Shown: positions 21,234-30,400 of the stretch, piece after piece
How positions within the stretch are numbered: position 1 is the first letter of the stretch
How the letters are laid out: each line of letters begins with the position of its first letter
Source: Paecilomyces variotii
Taxonomy: Eukaryota
Strand: one strand, 5' to 3'
NCBI GenBank assembly: GCA_004022145.1
Contig: RCNU01000007.1
Length of the DNA stretch: 64,000 nt
Notes under the pieces: generated by a model
The model's input: only the letters and a program-made list of their open reading frames with translations
What the model was told of the DNA's origin: nothing
Databases searched by the model: none
Translations under genes and position numbers: made by a program

Positions 21234-22151
21234 ATGAGCGGTGACTCTGAAGAGGCTCCTCCCGAGGTGCATCATTACAACGACCGGAGTGAGGTCCCTT
21301 GGGATATCCAAAAGTAAGCACGCTCATTCATGCCAAGAACATATATATATATATACTTACGACCACTGACCATATTCCCAGTTACTGGGCACAACGCTAC
21401 AAGCTATTCTCTAAATATGACGAGGGTATCTGGTTGACCGATGATGCCTGGTTTGGCGTCACCCCAGAACCTGTTGCTAAGTTTGTTACCCTGCTTGTTG
21501 CGCATGTCATTAGAATAATAACATTGGCTTACCACCTGTATAGTAAAATCGCGGAGCACATCGCCAAATCTGCTCCTAAAGGGCGAAGCATCTTAGTCGA
21601 TGCATTTGCTGGAGCTGGTGGGAACACCATCGCGTTCGCGCTCTCCGGGCGCTGGAAACGTGTCTACGGCATAGAGAAAGATCCCGCAGTCCTGCAGTGC
21701 GCAAAGCACAATGCGAAGGTGTATGGAGTAGAGAACAAAATCACCTGGTTTCAAGGCGACTGCTTCGAGATTCTCAAAGCCCAGTTGAAAGACCTGGCAC
21801 CATACAGTGTGCTTTTCGCCAGTCCGCCATGGGGTGGTAAGTTTCTTCTGTCTTTCTTTCTTCTGCCCAGTTTTCCAGCAAGTGGGCGGTGCTGACTTCC
21901 CTTTAGGACCTGGCTATCGTTCAGATGAAGTATTTAATCTGCGAACCATGGAGCCATATCCGCTCAGTAAGCTGTATGAAGAGTATTCCGTCTTCACTGA
22001 ACATATGGTTCTCTATTTGCCTCGGACGTCTGATCTGAAGCAGTTGGCGAAGGTGGTCAAGGACGATAAAAAGGCTACTGTTATGCATTACTGTATGGAA
22101 GGCGCTAGCAAGGCGTTGTGTATCTATTATGGCGATTTTCATCTGGAATGA
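21234..22151 (+). CDS. tgs1: Trimethylguanosine synthase (RNA cap methyltransferase), 4 exons
   Basis: YWAQRYKLFSKYDEGIWLTDDAWFGVTPE, VDAFAGAGGNTIAFA, SPPWGG|PGY, LYLPRTSD; introns 21314-21381, 21481-21543, ~21837-21907. Confidence 0.93.
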
Positions 22152-22681
22152 CTTTTCAGCGATCCCGTATTGAATAGAATGATCGTTTTACAAACCTATT
22201 CATGTCTAGTTAGACGGGGTACCGGGACATGGGCAGATGAATGGCAACTTGACACCTGCGTGCGCCACACAACCCTTACCTCTCATTTACCTTGTGAATG
22301 AAAAGCCAAATGGCATCCAGTAAAAGCGAGATTACTCATAGTTCTATTCACTAAAAGTCCTGCTTATTGTCATGATTCTGTCGATTCTTTGAGGACCGGA
22401 TGAGCTGATTTCCCAATAAGGCTTAGCGGTATATCGTCCGTCGCCTCCGCGTCCGATGCGCTTCTTCTCTCCTCACTCTCTCCACGCCGATAGCCACTGC
22501 TTCTCGCTTCAGTTCCTCTGCAGCTTCCTCTTCGACATCGATGATTTAGAGCCGGTCTCGACGTCATTTCTATGATACTGCGCGATCGGTACGCCGTCCG
22601 ACCGTCGTCGACCGTTCTACGTCCTTGACCAAGGCGGGAATCTTGTGACGGCTTCAGTTCTTTCAAAGATCACATCCCAAG

Positions 22682-25600
22682 ATGCCCCACGCTACAGAGA
22701 ACGGTGCGCTCAACGCCGAGGACGCCGATTTCAACAATGTTATGCAACAGATCAACGGGCCCTTCGGGGAGGGCGGCGTGTCTTTCGATTTTATGTCTCG
22801 CGAGTTAGAGCCAGGCGAGAAGGCAGACGACGCAATCGACTACGAGGACATCGACGATGATGACCTCCCCGAGGAGGAAGAAGGAGGCGCTCCTCCTGCG
22901 ACGGCGAGAGATATCGATATGGCACCCCCTGGCGAGCAGGAGAAGGAGGACTGGGGAGAAGATATCTTTGGAATGGATGAAGAGGCTGGAAAGCGCGAAG
23001 AGGGCGATGATGAGCTGGACGATTTATTTGGTGAAGCCCCGTCACCAACCGCAGGGAACCAGGCCGACGAGACACGAGATCTCTTTTTTGAGGAGGAAGA
23101 GGGTCCATCGCTGGCAGCTGGCGATGCTGGTGCCACCGACGCTCCGGTGGCAGAGGCTGAGGTCGAGGCAGAAGCGATGGAAGAGGGTAGCATTCTCGAA
23201 GGAGAAGAGCCTTCCTCACCTACTGTTGAGGACATGGATCCCGCTACTCTTCGAGCATGGAAACTTCAACAGGCCTTGTTTGCTATGTCTGCAGTCGGCC
23301 CGGATAATCCGCCTGCCCCTCCAGAGAACGTGGAAGAGCTGCTTGAGTCACTATGGCCAGGGTTTGATCGTAAAGCTCTGCCACGGTTCTTGGAACTCAT
23401 TCCTCATAAGAAGGCTTACTTCGTCGGAAAACAGGCCCTGAAGCCCCCGAAACCAGTGCAGCCGACAAAAATCAACCTAGAGCTTGCTCAAGACCAGGAG
23501 CGTGTATTCAAAGCGGGAGGCCAAGTCAGCAAGCGCGCTCTCGAATCAGAACAACTTGGCATAATTCCGATCACTGTGACTGTGCAAGAGGAAGAAGAAA
23601 GTCCGATCGAAGAGATCGATTTCGAGACGGATCCGGAAGAAGTGCTCCCTGGGGGGGTTACCATGCAGGACCTTCATGTGATTTGCACAGATTGGGAGGT
23701 CAAAACGGACGTTTCTGAAATGGATCTCGACGAAGAGCCTGAACCGGCCAAAGACATGGACGAAGCCGCTGAGGAGGATGACTGGCTATTCGAGACTACA
23801 CGGCCCGCGAAGAAGCGTAAGCTGGGGAAGGATCCAAACGAAATCATAGCTTTATCACACATCGACATTCCGCCACTCGACGATCCTGAGCAGATCACAG
23901 CTGGGATCGCCAAGAAGGTCACGATTGATCTGAACGATCCCCATCTACTCCTTGACGAGCGAGGTCCCGAGTCTGCCGTGCAGAAGCCCAAGGCTTTGGG
24001 AGCTATCAATCGGGATGAAATGGACGCCAATGTCACCAAACGCCTGACAAAACGCTACAACATTTCAAACGACGAGGCATATGACATGCTCAAGGAGAAT
24101 CACCAGAACAAGGTGCGCAGTACGCTCGGTAATGTAACCCTCGAGCATAGTATGCCCGCTTTGCGCTTGCAGTGGCCTTACTATAAGACTGAGCTGTCTA
24201 CCTCGGAGGCACGATCCTTCCATCGCCCAGCTTTGACCTTCCGACCTGGCCAATCCGTCTGGTTCAAGAACCCCGCGTACATCAAGCGGAAGCATCAAAA
24301 AGGCAAGGATATCAAGACTCTTTACAACTCTACTAAAGACCTTTCAGCGGCGGACAACTCGAACGTTCTCCTGGTCGAGTATTCCGAGGAAGTTCCAACC
24401 ATGATGTCGAATTTCGGAATGGCCAATCGCTTCATAAACTACTACCGTCGGAAAAACATGGAGGATTCGTCTCGGCCAAAAGCAGAGATCGGTGAGACGG
24501 TCGTGCTCCTGCCTCAGGATAAGAGTCCATTTTCCATCTTCGGACACATTGATCCCGGCGAGACGACAGCAGCTATCTCAAACTCTATGTACCGTGCTCC
24601 ATTATTCCACCATCAACCTAGGTCTACGGACTTTCTGGTCATTCGCTCCAGTACCGGTAGCGGTGGATCCGATTACTTCGTGAGGAATATCGACAATCTC
24701 TATCTTGCTGGCCAGCAATTGCCGTCCACGGATGTACCCGGACCCCATTCTCGAAAGGTCACCACGACAGCCAAGAATCGCCTGAAGATGCTCACCTTCC
24801 GTCTCATGAAAAAGTCTGGCGATATGAAATTGTCGATATCTGACATTACTGCTCATTTCCCGGGTACCTCGGACATGCAGAATCGTCAGAGAATGAAAGA
24901 CTTTGTCCACCACGATAAGGAGTCGAAGCAATGGGTTCCAAAATTCCTAGATGCTATACCTGACTCTGACACAATACGCTCCTGGATTCAACCGGAGGAT
25001 GTCTGTCTTCTGGAATCTATGCAGGTCGGTCAGCAACATCTGCACGATGCAGGTTATGCAAACGATGCAGAAAAGGGTGGCGACGACGATGAAGATGTGG
25101 AAGGCGAGAGTTTTGAACAACAGATGGCTCCTTGGAAGACCACGCGCAACTTCCTGTTAGCCTCGCAAGGCAAGGCCATGTTGAAGCTTCACGGTGAAGG
25201 TGACCCTACTGGCCGTGGCGAAGGTTTCAGTTTTATCAAAACCTCGATGAAAGGTGGCTTCAAGGCCATTGGCGAGAGTGTCGAGGATAAACTAGACGCA
25301 CAGAGACTCAAGGAGCTGGGCGGCCACAGTTATAACGTGGCTCGTCAGCAGAAATCGTACGAGACTTCCATCCGCCGTATCTGGGATGCCCAGAAAGCGA
25401 GCTTATCTTCAACCGTTGAGCATTCGGACGCCGAGAGTGACATCGATCAGGAAGATGAGGAAGATGAATTCAGCAAGCCCACGCCAAGATCGGAGGCTCC
25501 TACCCCAGCAGCTTTCCGCAGGGATGATGAAACTACCAGTCAGTTCAGTAGACTAAGCACAACCAGCCAAAAGAACAAAGTCTTGAGGATCGTTCGCGAT

Positions 25601-26605
25601 TACGAAGACGAAAATGGCAACGTCTATCAGAAGGAGCAGTTGGTTTGGGACCCCCGGGTTATCAGACAGTACACCCAGTACCGCTTCAAGATGGAGGCTC
25701 TCCAGACAAAGTGGGCTGCTCTAAACAAACACATTCTGCGTATTATAACTGACTATCTGGCAGACTCGATAAGATCGAACCTACGGGCGACCGTGAAGTG
25801 GACGCTCGTAACATGAAACTGTACAACTTCTACCCGTCCCAGTTCTTTTATCAGCTACTGACTTTCTCTATCCAGACTCGAAGCGGAACTTGGCAGACTC
25901 AACCGGAACAAAGAACGCCGCTTCGCTCGCGAGAAGCAGAAAGGAGTCAGCTCAAAACCAAATGGGGAATCTCCCAGCGAAGCCGGAACTCCCGGAGCTG
26001 GAAAGCCAGCAGGCACCCAAAGAAAGTGTGCCAACTGTGGTCAAGTCGGCCACATCAAGACCAACAAAAAGTGCGCAAACCACCCTAAATACAGAAAGGC
26101 TAAGCAGAAACGCTATGAAGTCTATGAGCCCGGCCCCAATGACCCCGTACCCGGTGACACTGAGCCTACTATCATTGCACCCAATGATCCTGCACTTGAT
26201 TTTTTACCTTACTGTTCTGGAGCCCTTACTGTTGAAGCTCCGGGCGCTGAAGAGCATCCTGGGGACACTGTTCTCAATGCACCTACACCCGTCTCTATAC
26301 AAACTTGAGCGGGCCAACCACTTTGGCTCCAGAGCTACCTTCCTCTTAGGAACCCCCAAGGGAGCGCTTTCGCACCGCGAGCTTCAAAGGACCCAAGAGT
26401 TCAATCGTTTTTCGTTTTGTCATTTGAGAAGAATCGATCATCGACTTCAAAAATATTCACCCAGGATTTTTTTCAAAGGAACCCATTGGCTAACGTGATT
26501 ACCCATCATCTCAACAGGCTCTGTCCCCTTCTCAACGGTACAATGAAACCCGAAGATCGAATCAGCGGATCCGCTTTTGCCATGGGCTTGCCACCAGCCG
26601 TTTAA
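22682..26605 (+). CDS. taf1: TFIID subunit TAF1 (exons 22682-25710, 25764-25820, 25876-26070, 26518-26605)
   Basis: TAND-like KADDAIDYEDIDDDDLP; YNISNDEAY; EYSEEVP; PGPHSRKVT; APWKTTRNF; GEGDPTGRGEGFSF; C-terminal zinc knuckle CANCGQVGH. Confidence 0.95.
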
Positions 26606-27425
26606 CTTCCACTCCTCACTTCTTCCCCTATCGGTTCGGCCAAAGCAAAGAACACAAGATCGAATCGAGTCAAACCGATCGAAAAACCTATTCTCCGACA
26701 CAGCGATTCCCGTCTCAGTTTTCTCCCTGGAATTCAAATTCAATAAATTTATCTCAACCATCAATCAATCACACTTCCCCGTCGATCCTGGCTGATTCAG
26801 CGGGGGAGGAAACAACAAAATACCATATCCCGCTTATTTTTGTACCTGTACATACATATACTTTGCACGGTGAGACTTGATTATGCTCTTTACTTTTAGT
26901 GCTGTCTAGATGGACATGTGGGGAATTTGTTCTTTTCTTTTCTTTTTTTCTTTTGCGGGAAGAAAAGCCTCATCTCAATAGGTACCGGTTTACGATTCTA
27001 TTAATTGTTGTTATTCGTTATGGAGTTTGTACTGTGCGCATGTGATACCTGCTGGGACGAAAGGGAAAGAGTCTGGATTGCAATCGATGCGGATGGGACA
27101 TTTCTTTCGATGGAACATGAGTTATTACGAGTCTCTAGTCACAGAGTGTAGCAGTTTAGAAATGAAATAATTTGGATGCTGCACAGGACAGAGACTTAGG
27201 AGAGGAAGAAAGTCAATTCTGTTAATGATCTTGACTGTTATTAAAGATGATTCGTCACTATACGTCCTTTGCAAACGGACTAAAGAACGCCTGAGGCCCT
27301 TCACCTCAAAGAGAGTAAGTAGCAATATGTCAGGTGGTTAATAAGCCTAAACAATGTATAACAATGACGCGACCTCGTTGCATCTCCCAAACCTGACCAG
27401 AGCAGTTCAGCAGCAGGGGCTCTGA

Positions 27426-30400
27426 TCAAGAAAGGTCTAGCATATCTCGGGACATCAATGACCTGCCTCTTTCGAGTTCGAGAGCTGCCATTACGGCTTT
27501 CGGCCGACGATACGTATAGCCCAAGAAAGCGCCTCTCTTCCGAATGTCCAGAACTGTCTGCCCCACAGCATCATCTCGCAATATTTTGTCCCGGGGTCTC
27601 TTCTTCTCCTTCTTTTTCTTGTGGATCTTGGGGATGATCTTAGTGACGGACTGAAGTCGAGACGGATTTGCAGCGCCCGCGCCATCGGTCATCTGTTGTC
27701 CCAGATCCGGAGACTGCATTTGAGACTCAATAGGAGAGTTGGAATTGACTGCGTCAGGCATATGAGTATCCGGATCTTGATTGGGACTAGGAATTGCATC
27801 CGGTATGTCACTATGGCTTGACGTGTCGTCAATATCACTGATCGGCTCCTCTTCATCGAAGTACTTCGTGTCTTCCCAACTCTTTACCTTGGGGACGAAT
27901 GGTGGCTTCCGTAAATGGATGTCGTCCCATCGGATTCCTCTGAAGAATGGATGTGCTTTGATATCTCCTGCATCTTCAGGATACACATAAAATCCTCTGT
28001 AGTCCTTGCTTTGGCGATCAGCCGGGAGATTCAGGAGCTCCCCGGGGACCCTTTTCGAATGTACAAAGTCATTTAGCATGTACTTTCTCGAACATAGCCG
28101 GTACTCCTTTTCTTGCACAATCTGACTGATGAGGTCTATTGCTTCAGCAGAGACAAGTTTGTCGGAAGGCTTCTCCACCGGGAAGTGCAATGTTCGAGGA
28201 TGTTGCTGTTACATGTCTCAGTCAGTGGAGAAATACAAGCAATGGGTTACTCACGAGAATCTTCAGTTTTGTTTCTTGACGGTTCTCGCAGGCGAAGGGT
28301 GTATACCCGTATAGGCACTTATATGGTCAGAGAACTGCAGCATATTCTGAATGCGATAAATTACCTCGTATAATATGATTCCGATACTCCACCAATCACA
28401 CCTGCCGTCGTACGGTTCACCCCGAATGACCTCGGGGGCCATATACTGGCTGGTTCCCACAACACTCTTCGCGAGTCTTCTCTTCTCCTTTCTGTTGCGC
28501 CACTGGAGAAGGGTTTCATTCGGCCCAGGGCCTCTGTCCTCTTCTTCATTGTTTGGTTGCTCGGGGCGCGTCCCTGGGGGAGCATTCGCTGCAGCATTCG
28601 CTTCCTCACGATCCTGCTTGTCGCCTTCAATGGTAATACCCAGTTTCTTCAACAATGAGTGTCTGTGGTTATTGAAATACGCTTGGTCATGAGACCAATG
28701 ACCATCAAAGGCTAGACCGAAATCTGAAATCTTCAGATGGCCAGAGGCGGATATAAGGAAATTGTCAGGTTTCACATCGCGATGTATCCATCGCAGCCGA
28801 TGGGCCTCTTCGACACACAGAACCATCTCCGCGATATACCATCTTGTCACTTCTTCTGACAGTATGTTCTTACGAATAAGCAATCCCAAGAAATCCCCCC
28901 CGACCATGAAGTCCATCACGAGATAGAGGTTGTGCGTGTCTTGGAAGCTAGCGATAAGAGGTACAATCCATCGGGACTTCTCAGAGGCGACGAGGAAATC
29001 CCTCTCCGCTCGCAAATGTCCCTCTTGACTGTTTCTTAGCATGTCCGATTTTCGTATGACTTTCATGGCGTATACTTCCTTCTTGATCTTGGTCAAATCT
29101 CTTCGACGACTGGATCGAGTTCCATCAACAGCTGACCTAAGCGCATCCAGAGTCGTCGCCTTTGAACGGCTGGTATCGCCCTTCGAGGTAACTAATCCTT
29201 CATCTACAGTGTTTCCTTGGATTTCGTCACTTTCTTTCTTTTCTTTGACTAAGCGCACAACGCCAAAACTTCCTTTGCCTAAGACTTTGATGACCTCATA
29301 TCCTGCAACAGAGACCGTCTCACTGCGACGCACGCAGTTAGAACGAGTCTTTAGAACCCTAGACTGACGAAGGTATTCGCTTTCCTGGACAACCCAGGCA
29401 TTTATGAGCCTGCGTCTCTCTTCTGAGGAAATAGGTAAGGACCGTAGTTGTCCTTCAAGTTCTCGCAGTCTCCGGGAGCGCGGGCAGGTCCTCGAGAGAA
29501 TAGAATTGAAGTGTGTCTCGAAGAAGATCTTCGCTGTAGCCGTCGCCTCAACAGTCACAATAGACGGAGAAAAAGAAATGGGCGTCTCCTCTATAGGTCG
29601 CAATTTTTTGTCAGTCTCCCGCGACCAGACAGATAAACTCCGTTCTAATGGTCGCTTCGTTTCAGGAAAGGTAGATGGATCCTCGGAAGTTGGATTTGTC
29701 GATTCTCTGAGTGAGGGTGAAATGCCGCCGCTGGTATCTTGAGATGGGTCTGAACTGTCCTGGGTATTGTCACCTTGCTTGCTTAAAGTGCCTACCGAAG
29801 AGGGTGCCAGGAGAGCAGGAATACTAGGCCGGGAACGGAGACTTGTCCGACGAATAACGGTAGGGTGTCCAAAGGTCGTGGACAGCTTTCGAGATACTCG
29901 ATAGGTGAGACCGGGAGTAGACTGGCATCGACGCACCGAGGTTACAGGCGGGCAACCCGGAGGAAGTAGCACATATTGTGGACCGAGCAAAGCGTCTATA
30001 TGCTGTCGCTGTTTCCCCTGCTTTCGAGTAGATGGTGCGTGGCGTAGCTCAGACATTTGTTCTGAACTTGCACGAGTTGCTCTTGCCACGCTCTGATTAA
30101 TAGGACTAGGGGGTGGAGACAACAGTTGAGCAGCTTCCTGGGTCGATCTCAATCCCAATCGAGATGTGATCCGGGAGTCTGAAACTCCATCTAGATCGTG
30201 TGGTGTGATAGGAGCTTCAGACGGTTCATTCACTGTTCGGCTCACTATTCATGAAGTCAGTAGACAGAGCAGAAAAGAATGCGATGGCAGATAAGCAAAC
30301 CATTGCTGTTTCTCAGGCCTAGGATTGACAATAGTTTCGAACTGCTTCTTCTGAAGCGCCCCTTTATTCCACCTTTATCATTGTTACTTTCCGGAGTAGC

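Follow-up and report, generated by a model that had tools for sequence, protein, structure and literature searches.

A coding-like read-through frame in the last TAF1 intron of Paecilomyces variotii and the closure of the zinc knuckle

TAF1 is the largest subunit of TFIID, and in the human protein basic residues beside the zinc knuckle contact DNA. Animals reportedly have TAF1 isoforms that differ in a small, alternatively spliced part of the protein: a neuronal isoform is said to contain the microexon 34', and Drosophila AT-hook isoforms, attributed to Metcalf and Wassarman in 2006, are said to be altered in a part that binds DNA. These isoforms are made with cassette exons in metazoan-specific regions and involve neither the knuckle nor retention of the last intron. 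When fungi splice a transcript alternatively, they usually do so by retaining an intron, and most retained introns bring an early stop and have no coding character.

Promoter occupancy in human cells has been described as requiring the TAF1 zinc knuckle, a DNA-binding module (Curran et al. 2018, PMC5854669). In that article, DNA binding by the knuckle is demonstrated for human TAF1 only, the spacing Cx2Cx4Hx6C is called invariable for TAF1, and proline is noted as common directly after the last cysteine.

Here, we analyzed the TAF1 gene in a 64-kb stretch of Paecilomyces variotii DNA (the window), where the last intron splits the knuckle just before its last cysteine, as a first-pass annotation had pointed out from the sequence. 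Like human TAF1, whose knuckle spans residues about 1285–1300 (PMC5854669), the protein has a CCHC motif after DUF3591, with basic residues between the histidine and the last cysteine. The form obtained by reading into the intron matches the human chain position by position in the alignment and has the same Cx2Cx4Hx6C spacing, with Ala-Asn-His rather than a proline after the cysteine; unlike human TAF1, the canonical spliced form has Hx7C, followed by Pro-Leu. As in fungal intron retention generally, leaving this intron with its non-consensus donor in place would change the C-terminus, but it differs from most retained fungal introns in its 78 coding-like codons and in completing a metal-binding motif. 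The explanation that we tentatively prefer, while placing it somewhat short of an even chance, is a minor retained-intron isoform with a coding-like tail, apparently the Paecilomyces version of a wider Pezizomycotina arrangement. If filamentous fungi do make two TAF1 forms that differ in how the knuckle is closed and in a basic patch, splicing of a single intron could set part of core-promoter recognition.

The TAF1 gene and its last intron

The gene in the window is P. variotii TAF1 (TFIID subunit 1). Its DUF3591/histone-acetyltransferase-like core matches PF12157 with an E value of 2.5e-195 over profile positions 1–444 of 444, as do the public proteins P0249 and P0244, and the exon region is 100% identical to P. 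variotii P0122 and 75–82% identical to TAF1 from Aspergillus and Penicillium. Translation of the spliced exon set (Table 1) gives P0249 letter for letter (1122 aa, ...KKLCPLLNG...PPAV), and the read-through model equals P0244 (1172 aa). Public P. variotii models of both kinds stand side by side, with a spliced form of 1122 aa and read-through forms of 1172, 1153, and 1186 aa. Public fungal proteomes mix both gene models, which confounds comparisons of TAF1 C-termini.

Table 1. Coordinates of the TAF1 exons, introns, and read-through extension in the window.
Feature	Position	Strand	Basis
First (large) coding exon, DUF3591	22682..25710	+	ATG reproducing P0249; right end from RNA joint 25710>25764
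53-nt intron, donor GTGGGC	25711..25763	+	GT..AG joint in X17, X18, X19
57-nt coding exon	25764..25820	+	RNA joints on both sides; model equals P0249
55-nt intron, donor GTACAA	25821..25875	+	GT..AG joint in X17, X18, X19
Knuckle exon, end ...RKCANCGQVGHIKTNK(K), zinc ligands 1–3 (C, C, H)	25876..26070	+	aligns with human TAF1 knuckle (PDB chains)
Last intron, 447 nt, phase 2, donor GTGCGC, acceptor CAACAG	26071..26517	+	RNA joint 26070>26518
In-frame read-through extension, 78 codons + TGA	26072..26308	+	open frame; equals end of P0244; codon score; periodicity
Remainder of last intron, without coding character	26309..26517	+	periodicity p 0.90
Last exon (K)LCPLLNGTMKPEDRISGSAFAMGLPPAV + TAA, canonical C-terminus, fourth zinc ligand at H-x7-C	26518..26605	+	same end in 67/81 knuckle-bearing relatives
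3' UTR of spliced mRNA, poly(A) after 27186	26606..27186	+	X17 contig, 3300 nt

The last intron (3 × 149 nt) interrupts a codon after its second base, with AA before and G after the intron. Its donor occupies positions 26071–26076, and CTAAC at 26490–26494 resembles a branch-site motif. In three of four runs (X17, X18, and X19, metatranscriptomes from two studies, with one joining contig per run), RNA contigs join 26070 to 26518, skipping 447 nt between GT and AG; the depth figures of the joining contigs are 116.9, 320.2, and 254.6, respectively. The fourth run, X11, yielded a single 25-kb piece, which resembles DNA and has the same sequence as the window. Because RNA contigs make this joint, the intron proposed from the sequence at 26071..26517 is real; it is the genuine last intron of P. 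variotii TAF1 and is removed in the main mRNA. Its length had been called unusual, and 447 nt indeed compares with 53 and 55 nt in the two RNA-confirmed neighboring TAF1 introns. The donor had been called weak; GTGCGC does depart from the usual consensus, but the donors of the neighboring introns are odd as well.

Several contigs in the RNA libraries contain intron sequence: two in X17 (26278–26453 and 26424–26538), one in X18 (26139–26547), and one in X19 (26071–26547). Where they extend into the last exon, it is by only 21–30 letters, the threshold for bridging being 31 letters, and among the contigs listed, none crosses the 5' splice site of the last intron unspliced. The depth figures (8.8–69.7 for intron-bearing and 116.9–320.2 for spliced contigs) are unusable as a retention ratio since contig depth cannot rank the parts of a gene; contigs do not give RNA levels, and DNA, pre-mRNA, and mature RNA in the libraries are not distinguishable. 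Growth conditions are not comparable because the RNA contigs stem from mixed food-fermentation communities only. The flank at 22300–22473 has no cover in X17–X19, and an uncovered part proves nothing about DNA contamination.

The 3300-nt contig of X17 is spliced, covers 26518–27186, and then has a loose end of 24 A. Among the contigs listed, this is the only poly(A) end of the gene, and none lies inside the last intron. The suggestion that two isoforms arise by intron retention or intronic polyadenylation is thus compatible with the intron-bearing contigs, but finds neither a contig crossing the 5' site nor an intronic poly(A) end. Extending this suggestion to a regulated "TFIID switch," in which condition or stage would set retention or intronic polyadenylation and yield two TFIID populations that bind promoters differently, is speculation, and we consider it improbable. 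Such a switch would draw on the same sequence evidence as the minor isoform, on the occurrence of the non-consensus GTGCGC at two further loci (L001 and L062), and on the Drosophila isoforms, which reportedly alter DNA-binding parts of TAF1. The sole poly(A) end listed lies after 27186, however, the neighboring constitutive introns also have odd donors, and the weak present constraint on the tail (see below) argues against importance.

The read-through frame and the zinc knuckle

Read without splicing, the knuckle exon continues in an open frame of 78 codons to a TGA at 26306–26308, as had been noted from the sequence. The encoded tail contains a Cys-x2-His motif, the basic patch KYRKAKQKR, and then the block YEPGPNDPVPGDTEP and the motif PYCSGAL, and its end is variable. 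By itself, such an open length is not rare: of 20,000 dinucleotide-shuffled copies of the intron, 3.9% reach at least 78 codons. The three forward frames of the intron itself contain 13, 1, and 1 in-frame stops. The composition of the frame is another matter. The codon score of 26072–26305 is 0.295, above 91.5% of 211 real 78-codon coding windows drawn from long ORFs of the 64-kb window, and it is reached by 0 of 1000 stop-free dinucleotide shuffles (mean 0.013, SD 0.073). Base composition differs between codon positions (chi-square 38.8, p 8e-7), indicating 3-base periodicity, whereas the remainder of the intron gives p 0.90. The read-through frame is the best of the six by codon score; an antisense gene beneath the tail was considered and rejected, with scores of −0.15 to −0.68 for the minus-strand frames. 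Hence, the coding-like composition of the 78 codons is well beyond chance, and the knuckle exon is continued in frame by 237 nt at the start of the intron that have the composition of real coding sequence, in agreement with the alternative C-terminus proposed at first sight. A small RNA hosted by the intron was also considered: a search of 25900–27300 against Rfam, with E values up to 10, gave two matches at chance level, both outside the intron.

The read-through knuckle, C-AN-C-GQVG-H-IKTNKK-C, is an exact Cx2Cx4Hx6C motif, and its closing cysteine aligns with the last knuckle cysteine of human TAF1, KCGACGAIGHMRTNKFCPL (PDB chains). The H-X6-C spacing claimed for this form therefore agrees with human TAF1 in the PDB and with PMC5854669. 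In the spliced knuckle (Cx2Cx4Hx7C), the fourth ligand comes from the Leu-Cys-Pro of the last exon, and Hx7C is also found in the other Pezizomycotina relatives listed. Profile matches of the knuckle exon to PF15288 (zf-CCHC_6) and PF00098 are weak and below the gathering score; with 16.6 bits for the spliced and 15.0 bits for the read-through form (range for either form 15.0–18.7 bits, cut-off 22), PF15288 does not separate the two forms.

The identity of the first read-through codon varies among relatives. Among 53 orthologous intron loci it encodes Tyr in 14, Ser in 13, Cys in 12, Leu in 7, a stop in 6, and Phe in 1, and among 108 read-through fragments Tyr in 66, Cys in 36, and other residues in 6. 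This codon depends on the donor, and the read-through cysteine is largely a by-product of the donor variant GTGC; the full GTGCGC is common to the window, the Thermoascus-like L001, and L062.

In the minor isoform that we favor, a minority of transcripts would keep the last intron. No exon junction follows the new stop, and retained-intron mRNAs should therefore be spared junction-dependent decay and reach the ribosome. The resulting TAF1 variant would have its knuckle closed by the first codon of the intron (Cx2Cx4Hx6C, as in human TAF1), and the cysteine would be followed by a histidine at +3, KYRKAKQKR, and a Pro-rich/acidic, probably disordered tail in place of LCPLLNG...PPAV. Given the DNA contacts made by basic residues beside the human knuckle, this form of TAF1 could bind promoter DNA or enter the nucleus differently.

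Variation in Paecilomyces and other Eurotiales

In the sister clade, the tail frame is intact in both Paecilomyces lecythidis (P0123) and P. variotii No. 5 (P0255), with in-frame gaps of 4, 1, and 7 residues, and both retain Cys-x2-His, YEPGP(N/D)DPVPGDTEP, and PYCSGAL. Amino-acid differences in the tail versus the upstream region number 9 versus 4 within the species and 20 versus 78 between species (Fisher p 6e-4), a pattern that fits long-term constraint that was relaxed later. The long identical run in the tail is significant in the comparison with P0123 (P 0.013) but not in that with P0255 (P 0.54), and tail sites that are polymorphic correlate only marginally with those that have diverged (p 0.056). 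The codon analysis within the species is indirect, being derived from protein variants, and the comparison between species is at the amino-acid level.

The strain represented in X17 and X19 differs from the window at 14 bases across the whole of 26071–26547. Its type has 6–9 amino-acid changes in 59–78 tail codons, versus about 2 expected at a dN/dS of 0.3, and its 21 listed differences in the large exon comprise 19 synonymous and 2 non-synonymous ones. Among P. variotii proteins, amino-acid sites segregate at 12 of 59 positions in the tail versus 23 of 1094 upstream; three variants (P0242, P0243, and P0245) carry stop-gain alleles and end 19 codons early, and one (P0248) has a frameshift near the end of the tail. 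On these counts, the tail seems to evolve at about the neutral rate within P. variotii, and present constraint on it is probably weak or recently relaxed. The isoform is therefore probably minor and non-essential.

Outside Paecilomyces, the Thermoascus-like locus L001 has an intron of 193 nt with the donor GTGCGC, in which the ORF part is missing and a stop follows 10 codons of read-through. The L001 intron can be loosely aligned with the 3' part of the window intron, including the ..GCTAAC.. stretch. The intron is absent from five Penicillium-like loci, three of them on genomic contigs between 147 kb and 1.07 Mb long, and in other Eurotiales the tails are short and unrelated or the intron is missing. 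Conservation of the ORF in Eurotiales, proposed as a check in the first-pass annotation, thus extends to P. lecythidis but not to Thermoascus, with its early stop, or to Penicillium, which has no intron. Judged from these loci, the tail is not conserved across Eurotiales but lineage-specific, and the spliced LCPLLNG end, found in 67 of 81 knuckle-bearing relatives, is by its distribution the conserved product.

HMMER with the 78 residues against 1.84 billion representative sequences returned no true homologue. Weak, repeated matches to P0261 (7220 aa, 12 matches, E 5.7e-11) and a match to P0262 involve giant repeat proteins and were read as repeat-inflated chance.

The frame may instead be a non-functional by-product of an intron that is simply spliced, a drifting relic or a coding-derived insertion of the Paecilomyces lineage, with any retention product being noise and the 1172-aa public proteins being mis-annotations that arose from a non-consensus donor and a chance open frame. 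We regard a non-functional relic as quite possible and nearly as likely as the minor isoform. It would account for the near-neutral evolution of the tail and its stop-gain and frameshift alleles, for the absence of the ORF part from the Thermoascus-like intron and of the intron from Penicillium-like contigs, and for the missing homologue. The shuffles that reach the open length, the cysteine explained by GTGC, and the spliced state of both the conserved end and the long polyadenylated contig point the same way. The periodicity is no proof of present-day selection because a neutral divergence of about 3% within the species, and a modest one from P. lecythidis, would be too little for decay, and an inherited codon periodicity would accordingly still be visible. 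On the other side, a coding-derived insert needs the right strand, the right frame, and continued openness; the frame survived three in-frame indels between two Paecilomyces clades; and divergence of the tail between species is low relative to the variation within the species.

Read-through tails in other Pezizomycotina

The same intron was examined in metagenome sequences, where 53 unique loci contain it. In 28 of these, read-through codons 3–20 include a C-x(1,2)-C motif, versus 1/53 in each of the other two frames. In two groups of loci (A and B), tails of 65–92 codons show dN/dS values of 0.19–0.58. Pooling five independent pairs, 110 of 195 differences are non-synonymous versus 76% expected (p 1.6e-9). 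The spliced last exon is also conserved in both groups (dN 0–0.12), and all 15 aligned sequences of group A have both tail cysteines. A set of 73 TAF1 proteins, most of them from Dothideomycetes, includes 39 with a read-through tail containing CxxC and 28 with the spliced end. These substitution patterns indicate that the same intron holds tails of 50–90 codons under purifying selection in Dothideomycetes and other lineages. That the intron is demonstrably coding in other classes stands against the by-product explanation and raises the prior against an accidental frame in the window.

Tails of Dothideomycetes (e.g., Pseudocercospora, Teratosphaeria, and Hortaea) and of groups A and B resemble that of the window in the position and phase of the intron, the start directly after HIKTN(K/R)K, the early cysteine(s), the often present basic patch, and the location about 150–320 nt before a conserved LCP(L/M)LNG exon. 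They differ in having C-x(1,2)-C 4–15 residues in, a conserved (Y/F)SxFxL or AAFAMGSLGL end, and purifying selection, whereas the window tail has its immediate Cys-x2-His, no detectable similarity to those tails, and weak constraint, if any. Compared with 166 other read-through tails, the best E values of phmmer and blastp were 0.2–0.4, which is not significant, and hhalign against four tail groups gave P values of 0.11–0.51. A resemblance to group B, DPxxGD after the basic patch, was likewise not significant. The arrangement in the window appears to be the Paecilomyces version of one that is widespread in Pezizomycotina.

A broader proposal, which we find possible but rather doubtful, is that the last TAF1 intron has a conserved dual use throughout Pezizomycotina: splicing would supply the cysteine of LCPxLNG, retention would supply ligands of the intron itself, and the ratio would tune the contact between TFIID and promoters. 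The intron-borne ligands would be Cys-x2-His in Paecilomyces, whereas Dothideomycetes, Leotiomycetes, and other lineages would use C-x2-C, and the CCHC knuckle would become a ribbon-like module with a basic patch behind it. The window would then hold a young, fast-evolving version of an ancient isoform pair, and public annotations would choose either form at random. For a Dothideomycete-like knuckle plus tail (alignment of 15 sequences), AlphaFold2 gave a mean pLDDT of 51.6 and a pTM of 0.19, values too poor to judge a meeting of the four cysteines.

Several Dothideomycete-like loci have their tail stop codon inside a donor-like GTGA(G/A)(T/C) of the same phase, and four public models (P0263, P0267, P0269, and P0316) join the tail to LCPMLNG. 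Together with an intron length that is a multiple of three and a single in-frame stop, this could mean that in the window, too, the tail is inserted before LCPLLNG, by read-through of the TGA at 26306–26308 or by a second phase-2 donor. We consider this highly improbable: the stop in the window reads ACT TGA GCG, without GT, no tail codon ends in G with T next apart from the real donor, the RNA contigs list only three joints for TAF1, and the stretch beyond the stop lacks coding character.

Compared with the zinc ribbon of eL37 (PDB 1s72 chain 1 and others), the CANC...CANH of the read-through form aligns to CxxC...CxxC followed by a basic stretch; the spacing is shorter, the last ligand would be a histidine, and E values of 0.066–3.4 in the PDB mark this as resemblance only. 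An eL37-like C4 zinc ribbon, which would have two CxxC pairs about 11–16 residues apart, was rejected, the second pair being Cys/His, the best PDB match having an E value of 0.066, and the Pfam model Ribosomal_L37e giving 0.09 (cut-off 27.6 bits). A literature search, with subscription journals outside its scope, returned no publication that describes alternative ends of fungal TAF1. Some orthologous read-through ORFs carry the JGI label "ribosomal protein L37E."

The TAF1 gene and its two possible C-terminal ends

The window carries the P. variotii TAF1 gene on the + strand. Its main ORF matches DUF3591 (E = 2.5e-195). Among the closest proteins, P. variotii comes first, with 100% identity across the exon region, ahead of P. 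lecythidis at 96% and TAF1 of Aspergillus and Penicillium at 75–82%; P. variotii itself is classified in Eurotiales, Thermoascaceae. The first-pass annotation had proposed that the last intron encodes an alternative C terminus that also completes the zinc knuckle, and its coordinates and both translations, spliced and read-through, were right when the sequence was read again. The donor splits the last Lys codon of the knuckle exon into AA and G. The four exons joined translate exactly to public protein P0249 (1122 aa), and the read-through model ending at 26308 is identical to public protein P0244 (1172 aa), so that each form is already public, as rival gene models and not as isoforms.

Features of the TAF1 region in the window
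Feature	Position	Strand	Remarks
Methyltransferase by appearance, 5′ of TAF1	21293-22151	+	
ORF matching DUF3591	22649-25816	+	
Exon	22682-25710	+	
Exon	25764-25820	+	
Knuckle exon	25876-26070	+	end ...RKCANCGQVGHIKTNK(K)
Last intron	26071-26517	+	447 nt; donor GTGCGC at 26071, acceptor CAACAG, final base 26517
Read-through extension (tail)	26072-26308	+	78 open codons (CANHPKYRKAKQKRYEVYEPGPNDP...TPVSIQT), then TGA 26306-26308
Last exon	26518-26605	+	(K)LCPLLNG...PPAV; stop codon 26603-26605
Second open forward frame	25812-26498	+	228 codons
Convergent gene	27426-28208	-	looks like a protein kinase, judged from the ORF translation

Several of the public TAF1 records listed (P0249, P0255, P0153, and P0211) are named "trimethylguanosine synthase," and in P0211 (1373 aa) methyltransferase Pfam domains are fused to DUF3591, which suggests that gene-fusion or name-transfer errors have spread across databases.

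The Cys supplied by read-through gives the knuckle the spacing Cx2Cx4Hx6C and, in alignment with PDB chains of human TAF1, stands at the final Cys of their knuckle. Curran et al. (PMC5854669) call this spacing "invariable" in TAF1, and the Hx6C reading of the first-pass annotation agrees with both sources. Splicing gives the fungal protein Hx7C with Pro-Leu next to it, whereas human TAF1 and the read-through form have Hx6C. Because the intron is in phase 2, the first read-through codon consists of T plus donor positions +3 and +4. In 53 unique orthologous introns from metagenome contigs, this codon specifies Tyr (14), Ser (13), Cys (12), Leu (7), a stop (6), or Phe (1), and in 108 read-through ORF fragments it is Tyr in 66, Cys in 36, and something else in 6. 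The read-through Cys is thus cheap, being set by the donor letters. The Pfam TAF1 knuckle model does not tell the two forms apart, scoring P0249 (spliced) at 16.6 bits and P0244 (read-through) at 15.0, both below the cut-off of 22.

The translated knuckle plus tail (25877–26305) weakly resembles the zinc ribbon of the archaeal/eukaryotic ribosomal protein eL37 (PDB E = 0.066, Pfam E = 0.09). Several orthologous read-through ORFs (P0070, P0110, and P0115) bear the JGI pipeline name "ribosomal protein L37E," a label that is probably an annotation artefact.

Splicing and possible retention of the last intron

Contigs of four RNA-labelled runs were compared with 22300–27500. The single 25-kb piece from run X11 matches the window exactly; it behaves like DNA or the source sample and is therefore uninformative on splicing. 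In the metatranscriptomes X17 and X18 (one study) and X19 (another study), one contig each contains the joint 26070>26518, which skips 447 nt (GT..AG); the joints 25710>25764 (53 nt) and 25820>25876 (55 nt) also occur in contigs of these runs. A 3300-nt contig of X17, running from 23361 via three joints to 27186 and followed by 24 A, is mature spliced TAF1 mRNA. Other contigs contain intron sequence (26278–26453 and 26424–26538 in X17, 26139–26547 in X18, and 26071–26547 in X19); those that reach the last exon enter it by 21 to 30 letters, short of the 31 letters required for bridging. The first-pass annotation had envisaged two isoforms arising by intron retention or intronic polyadenylation. 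The splice joint is present in all three metatranscriptomes, but none of the contig pieces listed crosses the 5′ splice site unspliced, and none has a poly(A) loose end inside the intron. Contigs do not separate mature RNA from pre-mRNA or DNA traces, and the RNA data are no more than compatible with intron retention as the source of a candidate isoform.

The dominant strain of X17 and X19, both from food fermentations, is not that of the window. Over 23361–27186 it diverges by about 1% across the coding exons, where almost every change is synonymous; the intron differs by about 3%, and the 3′ UTR by about 4% along with several small indels. In X18, a T-run loose end before 27219 marks the 3′ end of the convergent gene, about 33 nt away from the TAF1 poly(A) site at 27186.

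We tentatively favor a retained-intron TAF1 isoform as a plausible reading, in which a fraction of transcripts would retain the last intron. Messenger RNAs with no exon junction behind the stop and a modest 3′ UTR are generally spared by mRNA surveillance. Retention would extend the 3′ UTR from 581 to no more than 878 nt and leave no exon junction behind the new stop, so that the mRNA should be stable enough for translation. The predicted product is a TAF1 with the knuckle closed at Hx6C by the Cys of Cys-x2-His, followed by a basic patch and a Pro/acidic tail. DNA binding by human TAF1 requires basic residues by the knuckle (PMC5854669). By analogy, the variant may differ in promoter DNA binding or nuclear entry. 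Alternative ends produced by intron retention are already known, and animal TAF1 reportedly has a neuronal microexon isoform and Drosophila TAF1 AT-hook isoforms. We regard a regulated switch between TAF1 forms, as the first-pass annotation had imagined, as unlikely. Nothing on alternative TAF1 ends in fungi was found in the literature searched, a body outside which most subscription journals lie, and the sole splicing mentioned in the available part of a review of TFIID evolution is neuronal (PMC6672047).

Coding character and evolution of the tail in Paecilomyces

The open length by itself is not rare, since at least 78 codons are reached in 3.9% of 20,000 dinucleotide shuffles. Under a codon model trained on long ORFs of the window itself, the 78-codon tail averages 0.295 per codon and so exceeds 91.5% of 211 real coding windows (whose mean is 0.178), a value attained by 0 of 1000 stop-free shuffles (mean 0.013, SD 0.073). 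The read-through frame scores highest among the six frames of the tail region, and its base use varies with codon position (chi-square 38.8, p = 8e-7), with no such signal in the other 207 nt of the intron (p = 0.90). Stops number 13, 1, and 1 in the three forward frames of the intron, and Rfam found no RNA family in it. This composition beyond chance indicates that the tail is, or recently was, coding in the read-through frame. What is established is the splicing of the intron, the conservation of the canonical end, and a coding-like, in-frame character over the first 237 nt of the intron.

The second open frame, one base after the read-through frame, runs through the 55-nt intron, crosses the knuckle exon out of frame, and covers most of the last intron, where it has its single intronic stop. 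Across the tail region it scores poorly in the codon model (0.067), and the sole account offered is the periodic composition of the region.

The tail is present in 13 Paecilomyces protein variants. In P. lecythidis (P0123) and strain No. 5 (P0255), the frame is intact across gaps of 4, 1, and 7 residues, and Cys-x2-His, YEPGP(N/D)DPVPGDTEP, and PYCSGAL are retained. Differences amount to 20 of 63 aligned tail positions versus 78 of 1089 upstream for P0123, and to 17/63 versus 87/1091 for P0255. Polymorphism within P. variotii affects 12 of 59 gap-free columns in the tail versus 23 of 1094 upstream; three protein variants stop 19 codons early, and one is frameshifted near the end. In the large exon, the X17/X19 strain shows 19 synonymous and 2 nonsynonymous changes among 21 listed differences from the window, giving a silent divergence of roughly 3%, and the two nonsynonymous changes identify it with protein variants that have 6 to 9 tail differences. 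As only 14 bases differ across all of 26071–26547, the changes in the ORF part must be mostly nonsynonymous. Tail change within P. variotii is that expected of neutral evolution, unlike a dN/dS of 0.3. A McDonald–Kreitman-like table of tail versus upstream changes (9 versus 4 within species, 20 versus 78 between species; p = 6e-4) fits past constraint on the tail that is now relaxed, an effect possibly inflated by alignment gaps. Polymorphic tail sites tend to be those diverged between species (a weak test, p = 0.056), and a long identical tail run has P = 0.013 against P0123 but P = 0.54 against P0255 (also a weak test).

By eye, CSGALTVEAPGA in the window's tail faintly resembles SGSAFAMGLPPAV in the canonical end. 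Three P. variotii alleles terminate directly after ...PGA.

Among the best 120 TAF1 proteins listed, 81 have the knuckle, continued by LCP... in 67, CV... in 10, and CA... in 4. Conservation of the read-through ORF across Eurotiales, which the first-pass annotation had made a test of its proposal, did not hold. The Thermoascus-like metagenome locus L001 shares the donor GTGCGC, but its intron is 193 nt and its read-through stops after 10 codons, with no counterpart of the window's ORF part (~26080–26300). The intron is absent from five Penicillium-like loci (L002–L005 and L047), of which three lie on genomic contigs 147 kb to 1.07 Mb long. Where KK(L/V)CP is contiguous in genomic DNA, the intron was lost or never present. 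Comparison with 166 other read-through tails gave no significant similarity, and 1.84 billion representative proteins held no homologue beyond two repeat-driven matches. The tail as such is therefore Paecilomyces-specific.

The two matches, P0261 (7220 aa) and P0262 (1947 aa), are giant repeat proteins, one filamin-repeat-like and the other EGF-like by eye, in which tail residues 17–70 are weakly matched 12 and 6 times over, and were rejected as homologues. Loci L036–L038 and L041 also lack an intron here, with KK(L/V)CP contiguous in the DNA; several intronless loci lie on contigs of 100 kb to 1 Mb and are therefore genomic.

Given the near-neutral change, the alleles that truncate the tail, and its loss, or that of the intron, in neighboring genera, we argue that any function of the tail in P. 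variotii is minor or fading. That the tail is a non-functional relic is nearly as probable as the retained-intron isoform: neutral change and early stops agree with it, and the frame kept intact in P0123 and P0255 speaks against it.

The same intron in other lineages

Among the 53 unique intron-bearing loci, an intron length of 300 to 600 nt accompanies a long read-through frame. Within codons 3 to 20, chosen as lying past the donor hexamer, C-x(1,2)-C occurs at 28/53 loci in the read-through frame and at 1 and 1 in the other frames; the loci share phylogeny and are not independent, yet the motif is found in many dissimilar tail types. Two groups of metagenome loci were analyzed at the DNA level. 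Group A tails (65–85 codons; SV..KFVCxCEVPxFGPE ... basic patch ... AAFAMGSLGL) have a DNA-level dN/dS of 0.23 to 0.47, and group B tails (87–92 codons; YVCPCSQ ... KRKR ... WRPTxDPRxGDKFWDPRCWEAG...) one of 0.19 to 0.58. In five independent pairs pooled, 110 of 195 changes are nonsynonymous versus 76% expected (p = 1.6e-9). The spliced last exon is conserved in both groups too (dN 0–0.12, dS 0.15 to saturation). Selection on both ends implies two products from one intron in these lineages. The two tail Cys are invariant in 15/15 aligned group A sequences; AlphaFold2 gave no usable structure for the group A knuckle plus tail (mean pLDDT 51.6).

A search with a group A ORF returned 73 full-length proteins, mostly of Dothideomycetes (among them Zymoseptoria, Pseudocercospora, Teratosphaeria, and Hortaea). 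The spliced end is present in 28. In another 39 the read-through tail contains CxxC within 22 residues, and 28 of these finish in a (Y/F..)(S/T/A)x(F/L)xL motif; 5 have other tails and 1 lacks the knuckle. The model of the Leotiomycete Calycina marina reads KKYCPNC.

In L045, L046, L052, L073, L053, L055, and L057, the tail ends in ...TTG TGA or ...TGG TGA, as it does in L034, L035, L012, and L060. Such stops fall within GTGA(A/G/T).., a donor-like sequence whose phase matches that of the real donor, and splicing from there to the LCP exon would preserve the frame; four public models (P0263, P0267, P0269, and P0316) are built with the tail joined to the LCP exon. An internal-insertion form is therefore also possible in those lineages. 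For P. variotii, an in-frame insertion or stop read-through form is very improbable, the window having no donor-like GTGA at the tail stop.

In group A, the read-through form terminates in ...SAAFAMGSLGL and the spliced exon, at those same loci, in ...SSFGAVPAALTL; by eye, the two alternative ends have a common small Ser/Ala-Phe...Leu-x-Leu C-terminal pattern.
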